A stretch of 32,000 bases of DNA from a cyanobacterium endosymbiont of Epithemia turgida isolate EtSB Lake Yunoko (GTDB lineage: Bacteria > Cyanobacteriota > Cyanobacteriia > Cyanobacteriales > Microcystaceae), in the NCBI RefSeq assembly GCF_000829235.1, contig NZ_AP012549.1:1-32000 (forward strand), read 5' to 3'. Positions 6,005 through 6,997 of this stretch are shown here, piece after piece. Under the pieces are notes generated by a model that was given only the letters and a program-made list of their open reading frames with translations, had not been told where the DNA came from and ran no database searches. Position 1 is the stretch's first letter, and each line of letters opens with the position of its first letter. A program made the translations under genes and the position numbers.

Positions 6005-6997
6005 CGATCGCTTTGTTAACACTTACCTTACCGATGTTTGCCATTGCTTATTATTCTCCACAAAATCATCGAGCTAGACCAGAAACCTCTATAGAAAATT
6101 TTCAGCCATTACCATGAAAGACCGGCAATCTTTCTTTTATCTATTTCCCAAACCTCAATGGGCTCCTGATTGATTATACTCAGGAGCAGCGACGACTTCA
6201 GCTATTTGCTTTACGACGGCTAATTCTTCAGAAATAAATCCTTTAGTGACATATTTTTAGAACAAAGGGAAAAGTTGTCGAAACAGGGAATAGTAGTTAC
6301 GGAAAGGAATGGTAATGGAAACACATCTAGGATAAAAGGATCTAAAAGTAATGCCAGTTGACTCCTGATACCGTCGATGTAGTTCTCACATGCTCATAAC
6401 ATTACATACTTTACTGTTTTTATAAGTTTTCGTTGATGGGTTCAAAGGCTTTCCTATCAATCCTAAAATAGGGATTTTAAAAGCCTTCTATAAACCCTTG
6501 AAGTTTTCTTAAATCGGGTTATCATGTAATTTTTACCTAATTCATCGGGGTTGTGAGTAAAGATTACTAAAATAACTAGTCTGGGTTCCGAAGATAGTGA
6601 GTACTTGAGATAGTCTAACATCAAGTTACATAAGAAAAAATGTCATAAATGGTTGGTAATCATGGTTAACTCATAGCCTTTAGGCGACTGCAAGGGTTCT
6701 TTGAGTAATGGCATATAAATGGCTGCATTACACAATAGAGCGTCTAAAAATTTCTCAGTATCCTGAAAAGTTTCTGCAAACCGTTGAACAATCTTCAAGC
6801 TTTCTAGGTTAATAGGCTAAGAGCATGTAGTTGTCTTGGGAGATTTTTACTGCCTGAGCTACTTTATGGATTTTTTCTAAATTGCGACAGGCCATGACAA
6901 CGTGGCAATTTCATTTTTGAGTGAGAGCTTTCGTTGCGTGTAACCCAACTTATGACTAAGCTCCTGTAATAATTATAGGTTTTTGAGTTTACCTCAT
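6005..6997 (-). pseudogene. por: Light-dependent NADPH:protochlorophyllide oxidoreductase (POR) pseudogene, near full length
   Basis: Minus-strand translation from ATG 6997 is colinear with POR along its whole length. Matching blocks: MR*TQKPIIITGA*S*VGLHATKAL..HVVMACRNLEKIHKVAQ; [49 protein letters not shown]; [104 protein letters not shown]. Well over a dozen in-frame stops and at least two frameshifts. The 3' end is approximate. Confidence 0.88.

Follow-up and report, generated by a model that had tools for sequence, protein, structure and literature searches.

A neutrally drifting relic of the light-dependent protochlorophyllide reductase gene in the non-photosynthetic endosymbiont of Epithemia turgida

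Introduction

Mycobacterium leprae, Sodalis glossinidius and 'Nostoc azollae' have the pseudogene-rich genomes of recently host-restricted bacteria, and McCutcheon and Moran are said to have put forward a general model of such genomes in 2012. For the cyanobacterial endosymbiont, or spheroid body (diazoplast), of Epithemia turgida (EtSB), the 2014 genome paper in PNAS reportedly described the loss of photosynthesis and of chlorophyll synthesis.

A later comparison found that the photosystem genes of EtSB are mostly absent, that the whole chlorophyll a pathway is pseudogenised or undetected, and that pseudogenisation has been faster in EtSB than in RgSB (PMC5638926, 2017). All spheroid-body genomes carry 0.58-0.68 genes/kb, have intergenic regions made up of degraded genes, show high synteny and are free of intact transposases, and their state has been discussed as an early, pseudogene-peak stage of endosymbiont genome reduction (bioRxiv 10.64898/2026.03.19.712447). 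The gene for the light-dependent protochlorophyllide reductase (LPOR; por or lpor) is recorded as broken in EtSB, EaSB, RaSB, RgSB and EcSB and as present in the spheroid body of E. pelagica (EpSB), the broken EtSB locus being listed as ETSB-0006 (PMC12903740 Table S2D, 2026).

The spheroid bodies thus resemble recently host-restricted bacteria in their relaxed selection after a change of lifestyle, their persisting gene corpses, their AT-biased mutation and their low coding density, but they differ in being highly syntenic and in having no intact transposases. Because intact transposases are absent, spheroid-body genes decay by point mutation and small indels and not by IS-mediated deletion, a pattern that por fits. 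The combination of photosynthesis and chlorophyll pseudogenes with intact housekeeping genes is also found in non-photosynthetic plastids, such as those of Cryptomonas paramecium and of holoparasitic plants, although here the setting is a bacterial endosymbiont genome of ~2.8 Mb.

Here we describe the EtSB por locus in a window of 32,000 nucleotides, the whole stretch of DNA that was analysed (contig NZ_AP012549.1, positions 1 to 32,000, forward strand). A sequence-only reading of this stretch had taken the host to be a cyanobacterium that has given up photosynthesis, as the published gene content bears out (PMC5638926). The decay of ETSB_0006 is already known as an ordinary, catalogued case following the loss of photosynthesis; what we add is a base-level map of its lesions, a phylogeny of shared lesions pointing to at least two independent inactivations, tests of neutrality and a mutation spectrum.

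Identity and lesions of the por relic

The minus strand of the window between positions 6113 and 6997 (ETSB_0006) is derived from por and colinear with LPOR, and is almost certainly a non-functional relic in the chromosome of an obligate, N2-fixing, non-photosynthetic endosymbiont, drifting neutrally after the loss of photosynthesis. Homology to POR begins at the retained ATG (6997-6995) and runs down to 6113/6114, so that the relic covers codons 1-293 of 320 (reference nucleotides 1-878) in 885 bp. Translation of the minus strand over 5900-7100 in three frames showed the POR-like signal switching from frame to frame. When the pieces were stitched together, with stops read as X, the translation matched residues 9-295 of T. 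elongatus POR (PDB 6l1h) with E=7.6e-82 and 278 bits and the Synechocystis POR structure 6r48 with E=8e-76, and the PDB matches were exclusively POR down to E=1e-62. The dead por that had been proposed for this strand is therefore supported by an alignment far beyond chance. Despite its decay the relic protein retains 47% identity to the closest free-living orthologue, and the GC content of the relic is 0.36; its plus strand contains no ORF of at least 35 aa.

Against the NCBIfam equivalog TIGR01289 (LPOR) the relic scored 305.3 bits (E=5.7e-91; model positions 6-284 of 315), which is below the curated cutoff of 331.35 bits for functional members. The homology to POR is nonetheless real and specific, since the next-best SDR model obtained only 75 bits. 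A generic SDR identity for the relic was rejected on the same comparison.

The position of the gene agrees with this assignment: por lies downstream of acnB and is convergent with a gene of the TLTLP-motif family in EpSB, EcSB, the R. gibba spheroid body and GCA_002110465.1. The lpor pseudogenes RGRSB_1059 (R. gibberula spheroid body) and P3F56_09955 (EcSB, the E. clementina spheroid body) occupy the same locus as ETSB_0006 and do not differ from it in kind, with identical synteny of acnB, por, the convergent TLTLP-motif gene, NsiR4 and a DUF362 pseudogene. Upstream of the relic, 6998-7324 (minus strand) corresponds to the former por upstream region, which is AT-rich, contains no ORF and aligns with EcSB at ~80% identity.

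To place the lesions in the ancestral reading frame, we used a codon alignment of three intact, 320-codon orthologues, namely those of the E. pelagica spheroid body, of the apparently free-living relative GCA_002110465.1 and of Rippkaea orientalis PCC 8801, to which the decayed por copies of EcSB and the R. gibba spheroid body were added. The codon-by-codon comparison that the sequence-only reading had called for gave 12 stops, four small indels and a 4.2-fold per-site bias from GC to AT. The stops, which had been put at well over a dozen, fall at codons 3, 14, 16, 29, 118, 159, 160, 174, 203, 246, 279 and 285 and include all three types (TAA, TAG and TGA). They had been ascribed to W/Q/K-type codons, and their sources are indeed Trp, Gln and Lys codons together with Arg, Ser and Gly codons, mostly through GC>AT changes. 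At least two frameshifts had been expected and three were found, a +1 insertion (G) at 6817, a -2 deletion after 6535 and a +4 insertion (CCCA) at 6437-6440; the fourth small indel is an in-frame +3 insertion at 6216-6218 (all on the minus strand). The +1 insertion is shared with the R. gibba spheroid body and absent from EcSB and EpSB.

Both signature motifs of the enzyme have left recognisable remnants. The NADPH-binding motif GASSGVG has become GA*S*VG at 6944-6964 (minus strand), where IIITGA*S*VGL had been read from the letters, through stops at codon 14 (6958-6956, TCA>TAG) and codon 16 (6952-6950, GGA>TGA>TAA), of which the R. gibba endosymbiont has the former as well as the G>T step of the latter. 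The catalytic YxxxK motif, YKDSK in the ancestral gene, is now YKNSK at 6410-6424 (minus strand), with its Tyr and Lys codons kept in a broken frame. The other motif quoted earlier, GNR*KKD, lies near codon 285. Compared with functional LPOR (Synechocystis slr0506, T. elongatus PDB 6l1h/6rnv and R. orientalis PCC 8801), the relic is thus colinear over codons 1-293 with its Rossmann and YxxxK motifs recognisable, but with 12 stops, three frameshifts and a truncated C-terminus it has no uninterrupted ORF with intact GxxxGxG and YxxxK, and cannot encode the enzyme.

A deletion of ~167 bp has its junction at 6113-6117, where the relic now directly meets the stop codon that ends ETSB_0005, the convergent gene (5905-6117, plus strand). 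Comparison with relatives showed that the deletion removed por codons 294-320, the last 27 (~85 bp of coding sequence), together with a ~82-bp spacer, that it is also present in the R. gibba spheroid body, and that the spacer is retained in EcSB and EpSB. The interval 6005-6997 that had been assigned to por therefore stands for 6113-6997 and falls for 6005-6112, which is the 3' half of ETSB_0005; a nearly unchanged length of ~990 bp does not hold, as those last 108 bp belong to the other gene and the 3' end of por and the spacer are gone.

Mutational history across spheroid bodies

Judged by the divergence of acnB at four-fold sites (0.145-0.158), EtSB, the R. gibba spheroid body and EcSB form a near-polytomy, and the E. 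pelagica spheroid body lies outside it (~0.30). Six lesions of por are common to EtSB and the R. gibba spheroid body: besides the 3' deletion and the +1 insertion, both have the stops at codons 14, 203 and 246 and the G>T step at codon 16. It follows that por was already dead in the ancestor of these two. In EcSB, por has none of the six and carries its own lesions: an ATG>ACG change, codon 106 turned into a stop, and four indels (-1, ~-22, +1 and ~-24). No lesion was common to all three freshwater lineages (EtSB, the R. gibba spheroid body and EcSB).

The sole lesion that EcSB has in common with EtSB is a TAA at codon 3, which the R. gibba spheroid body does not have. We considered this stop as a common inactivation and rejected it, given that the branch lengths lead one to expect about one identical change in parallel and that six lesions group EtSB with the R. 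gibba spheroid body; it is most likely a homoplasy, the same C>A change having arisen twice. What first inactivated por may have been a regulatory change, and as such invisible in the sequence.

In the spheroid body of the marine E. pelagica por is intact, with 320 codons (13716-14678 of the extracted locus, OX373462), and is annotated by NCBI as protochlorophyllide reductase. It scored 494 bits against TIGR01289 and has a dN/dS of 0.11 to the free-living relative; on its own branch there were 35 synonymous and 29 non-synonymous substitutions (omega ~0.24), distributed 16/14/34 by codon position. We note that the main text of PMC12903740 describes Lpor as the 'first missing enzyme' of EpSB, yet Table S2D of that paper lists OXU93-07515 as present. 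The ancestor of the spheroid bodies was already without photosystems (PMC12903740, PMC5638926). In that ancestor por was still intact, and its descendants, with their separate sets of lesions, have since lost the gene on at least two occasions. Comparison with the intact copy of E. pelagica also shows that the chlorophyll pathway gave up some of its parts step by step and independently, long after the photosystems had gone.

A further step from these comparisons is tentative, and we regard it as doubtful: having outlived photosynthesis, being intact in the spheroid-body ancestor, broken at least twice in the freshwater lineages and constrained in EpSB, por might have served a use of LPOR or chlorophyllide that is independent of photosynthesis. 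If so, candidate uses would be the removal of phototoxic protochlorophyllide inside an illuminated alga, or tetrapyrrole-based regulation, and the EtSB relic would be a late end-point of a gene that persisted beyond photosynthesis.

We infer that the cause of the decay was relaxed selection following the loss of photosynthesis. On this explanation the endosymbiont would have stopped photosynthesis, por would no longer have been needed, and constraint on it would have been lost in the freshwater lineages. The ancestor of EtSB and the R. gibba spheroid body would then have gained the two stops in the NADPH-binding motif, the stops at codons 203 and 246, the +1 frameshift and the ~167-bp 3' deletion, and the gene would since have drifted neutrally under strongly AT-biased, transition-rich mutation. 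With small indels rare and no large excision since, a recognisable and nearly colinear fossil would have persisted, flanked on both sides by functional DNA that is conserved: by acnB upstream and by ETSB_0005 together with NsiR4 downstream.

The order of events could be different if por was dispensable, and for that reason lost, beside the light-independent enzyme DPOR (ChlLNB) in a low-oxygen cell that protects nitrogenase, the rest of the chlorophyll pathway still being in use. In RgSB and EcSB, lpor is broken and chlL, chlN, chlB and most chlorophyll genes are intact (PMC5638926, PMC12903740), and the early death of por in the EtSB/R. gibba ancestor would fit as well. Nevertheless, we consider it unlikely, because both PSI and PSII are absent from all spheroid bodies, so that photosynthesis went before the lineages diverged and hence before por died, because por of EpSB is intact and constrained although chlLNB is kept there, and because chlL, chlN and chlB are broken too in EtSB (PMC12903740 Table S2D). 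Redundancy with DPOR makes the sequence of events more precise and is hardly at odds with relaxed selection after the loss of photosynthesis.

Mode and tempo of decay

On the EtSB terminal branch we counted 67 polarised substitutions, spread over the codon positions as 29/21/17, of which 13 were synonymous and 54 non-synonymous (omega ~1.2), where the ratio of sites is 22:78. The dN/dS between the relic and the R. gibba copy was 1.11, and the p-distance of por to the R. gibba spheroid body, 0.154, compares with an acnB four-fold-site divergence of 0.145. The relic is in neutral drift, since dN/dS is ~1.1, the codon positions are evenly hit and por diverges at about the four-fold rate of acnB. 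It presumably retains no residual function, as far as these patterns of substitution allow one to judge.

The mutation spectrum comprised 45 GC>AT and 18 AT>GC changes, the 4.2-fold difference per site noted above, and transitions outnumbered transversions by 51:16 on the terminal branch. This spectrum predicts an equilibrium GC of 0.19, and the most eroded tracts of the window lie at 0.19-0.25. With a GC of 0.36 against 0.19-0.25 in those anonymous tracts, the por relic is a comparatively young corpse.

Decay by substitution, as the sequence-only reading had perceived it, was confirmed by ~100 polarised substitutions against five indel events on the lineage. The same reading had called this unusual for bacterial pseudogenes; however, substitution-riddled, long-lived pseudogenes are documented for all spheroid bodies, and for symbionts that became host-restricted recently in general (bioRxiv 10.64898/2026.03.19.712447). 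A similar proportion was seen in the 5.9-kb tract from a Wzy-like gene to acnB (3374-9244), where comparison with the R. gibba spheroid body gave 1030 substitutions and 44 indel events amounting to 630 bp, or about 23 substitutions per indel in the non-coding tract. This interval measures 5871 bp in EtSB and 6045 bp in the R. gibba spheroid body, and is shorter by 1.5-1.7 kb in EcSB and EpSB. Among the indels that could be polarised, more base pairs were deleted than inserted, so that the deletion bias usual in bacteria operates here too, if slowly. The relic therefore offers a clean and datable neutral marker of the mutational bias and the substitution:indel ratio of the endosymbiont, and a 4.2-fold GC>AT bias, an equilibrium GC of ~19% and a ratio of ~20:1 explain why spheroid-body genomes, free of mobile elements, remain large and rich in pseudogenes.

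These rates also bear on whether the relic has been kept for a secondary role, as an antisense or regulatory RNA or as a terminator or spacer for ETSB_0005/NsiR4 or acnB. Its persistence at one position in three or more lineages, its direct contact with the stop codon of the strongly conserved ETSB_0005 and the few terminator-like hairpins predicted in the interval by a promoter/terminator scan are what such a role would lead one to expect. However, the divergence of the relic equals or exceeds the neutral four-fold rate (0.154 vs 0.145), EcSB and the R. gibba spheroid body have deleted different internal pieces of it, and a secondary role is in our judgement very improbable. Because flanking junk DNA devoid of any homology persists equally well, the persistence of the relic is explained by a generally low rate of deletion.

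A por that still functions by readthrough, through an altered code, programmed frameshifting or RNA editing, has next to no probability, as the survival of the ATG and of the YxxxK codons for Tyr and Lys is nothing specific to it and stands against the occurrence of TAA, TAG and TGA in a relic whose neighbours are clean standard-code ORFs with normal stops, three separate frameshifts, the missing final 27 codons, a dN/dS of ~1.1 with substitutions even over the codon positions and a destroyed glycine-rich NADPH-binding motif. Sequencing or assembly errors in an intact por are just as hard to credit, since six of the lesions recur in a different species, R. gibba 17Bon1, whose spheroid body was sequenced independently, since five spheroid-body genomes, each sequenced separately, have the locus listed as broken, and since away from por a Logan assembly of SRR29904087 matches 13 kb of the window with 100% identity.

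Neighbouring genes and the rest of the window

The gene that converges on the relic, ETSB_0005 (5905-6117, plus strand), is intact and encodes a small membrane protein of 70 aa belonging to the TLTLP-motif family NF052624 (75.8 bits vs a cutoff of 45), with 92% identity to the free-living orthologue. Its product is identical to the deposited EtSB protein BAP16914.1, and the same holds for the sulfite reductase BAP16926.1 (24106-26010, plus strand); both deposited proteins come from a contig of 2,794,318 bp. On the other side of the relic lies acnB (aconitase B; 9245-11824, minus strand), which among the matches listed is 91-92% identical to the genes of the E. clementina and R. gibba spheroid bodies and 86% identical to that of 'Cyanobacterium sp. 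uoEpiScrs1', the E. pelagica spheroid body (bioRxiv 10.64898/2026.03.19.712447). The gene order around acnB is kept in EcSB and in the R. gibba and E. pelagica spheroid bodies. The contrast drawn earlier between the decaying por and clean housekeeping ORFs holds for the window, in which acnB, aroC, sir, gloB and a sigma factor gene are intact.

Upstream of ETSB_0005, an Rfam match to the small RNA NsiR4 was found at 5724-5789 (plus strand; 42.9 bits vs a gathering score of 40). NsiR4 (nitrogen stress-induced sRNA 4) controls IF7, the factor that inactivates glutamine synthetase. The sRNA occupies the same syntenic slot in two other spheroid bodies (15449-15514 and 15998-16063 of the respective loci; 43-46 bits) and in the free-living relative (7374-7439; 72 bits); at the E. 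pelagica locus there was no Rfam call for NsiR4. The gap of ~110 bp between NsiR4 and ETSB_0005 (5790-5904, plus strand) is near-invariant from the free-living relative to all four spheroid bodies, amid DNA that is heavily decayed, which indicates that selection is still effective on functional DNA beside the relic; the gap presumably serves the TLTLP-motif gene as promoter and 5' UTR, or else extends the sRNA.

Two further pseudogenes, of the DUF362 family (4911-5641, plus strand) and of an aldo/keto reductase (4243-4644, minus strand), keep the order that their intact counterparts have beside por in GCA_002110465.1. In the free-living relative the slot between acnB and por is filled by ParE, Phd, a helicase and XisI, of which tblastn found no trace in the window; these genes were either deleted or never present in the ancestor. 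The 2.2-kb gap between por and acnB has a GC of 25%.

Intact coding sequence makes up 54% of the window, and a tRNA scan of the 32 kb found none. The long ORF-free tracts at 7000-9244, 11900-12800, 13700-15400 and 26100-28200 have a GC of 19-28%; as this is close to the equilibrium of 0.19 predicted from por, they are probably far older gene remains, eroded beyond recognition. The region 11.9-15.4 kb (GC 19-25%) contains no recognisable gene besides a broken fragment of an ArgZ-type arginine dihydrolase (family NF052231; 12861-13360, plus strand). In EcSB, ArgZ is represented only by a 215-aa N-terminal ORF of this family, whose members are normally ~700 aa.

The 18856-32000 part of the window was 100% identical to a Logan contig from the public run SRR29904087, and this independent, recent data set thus contains the same genotype of the E. 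turgida endosymbiont. Within it lies an intact gene of the Sll1252 family (19635-20414, minus strand; 259 aa, NCBIfam 353 bits), named 'photosystem II electron transport protein' and carrying YlmH/S4 RNA-binding domains; its survival in a genome without photosystem II suggests that the role of the family is not specific to PSII. Only two HIP1 palindromes (GCGATCGC) were present in the 32 kb, at 19846-19853 and 23446-23453, both within intact genes, and the HIP1 site in por of the free-living relatives is mutated differently in each spheroid body.
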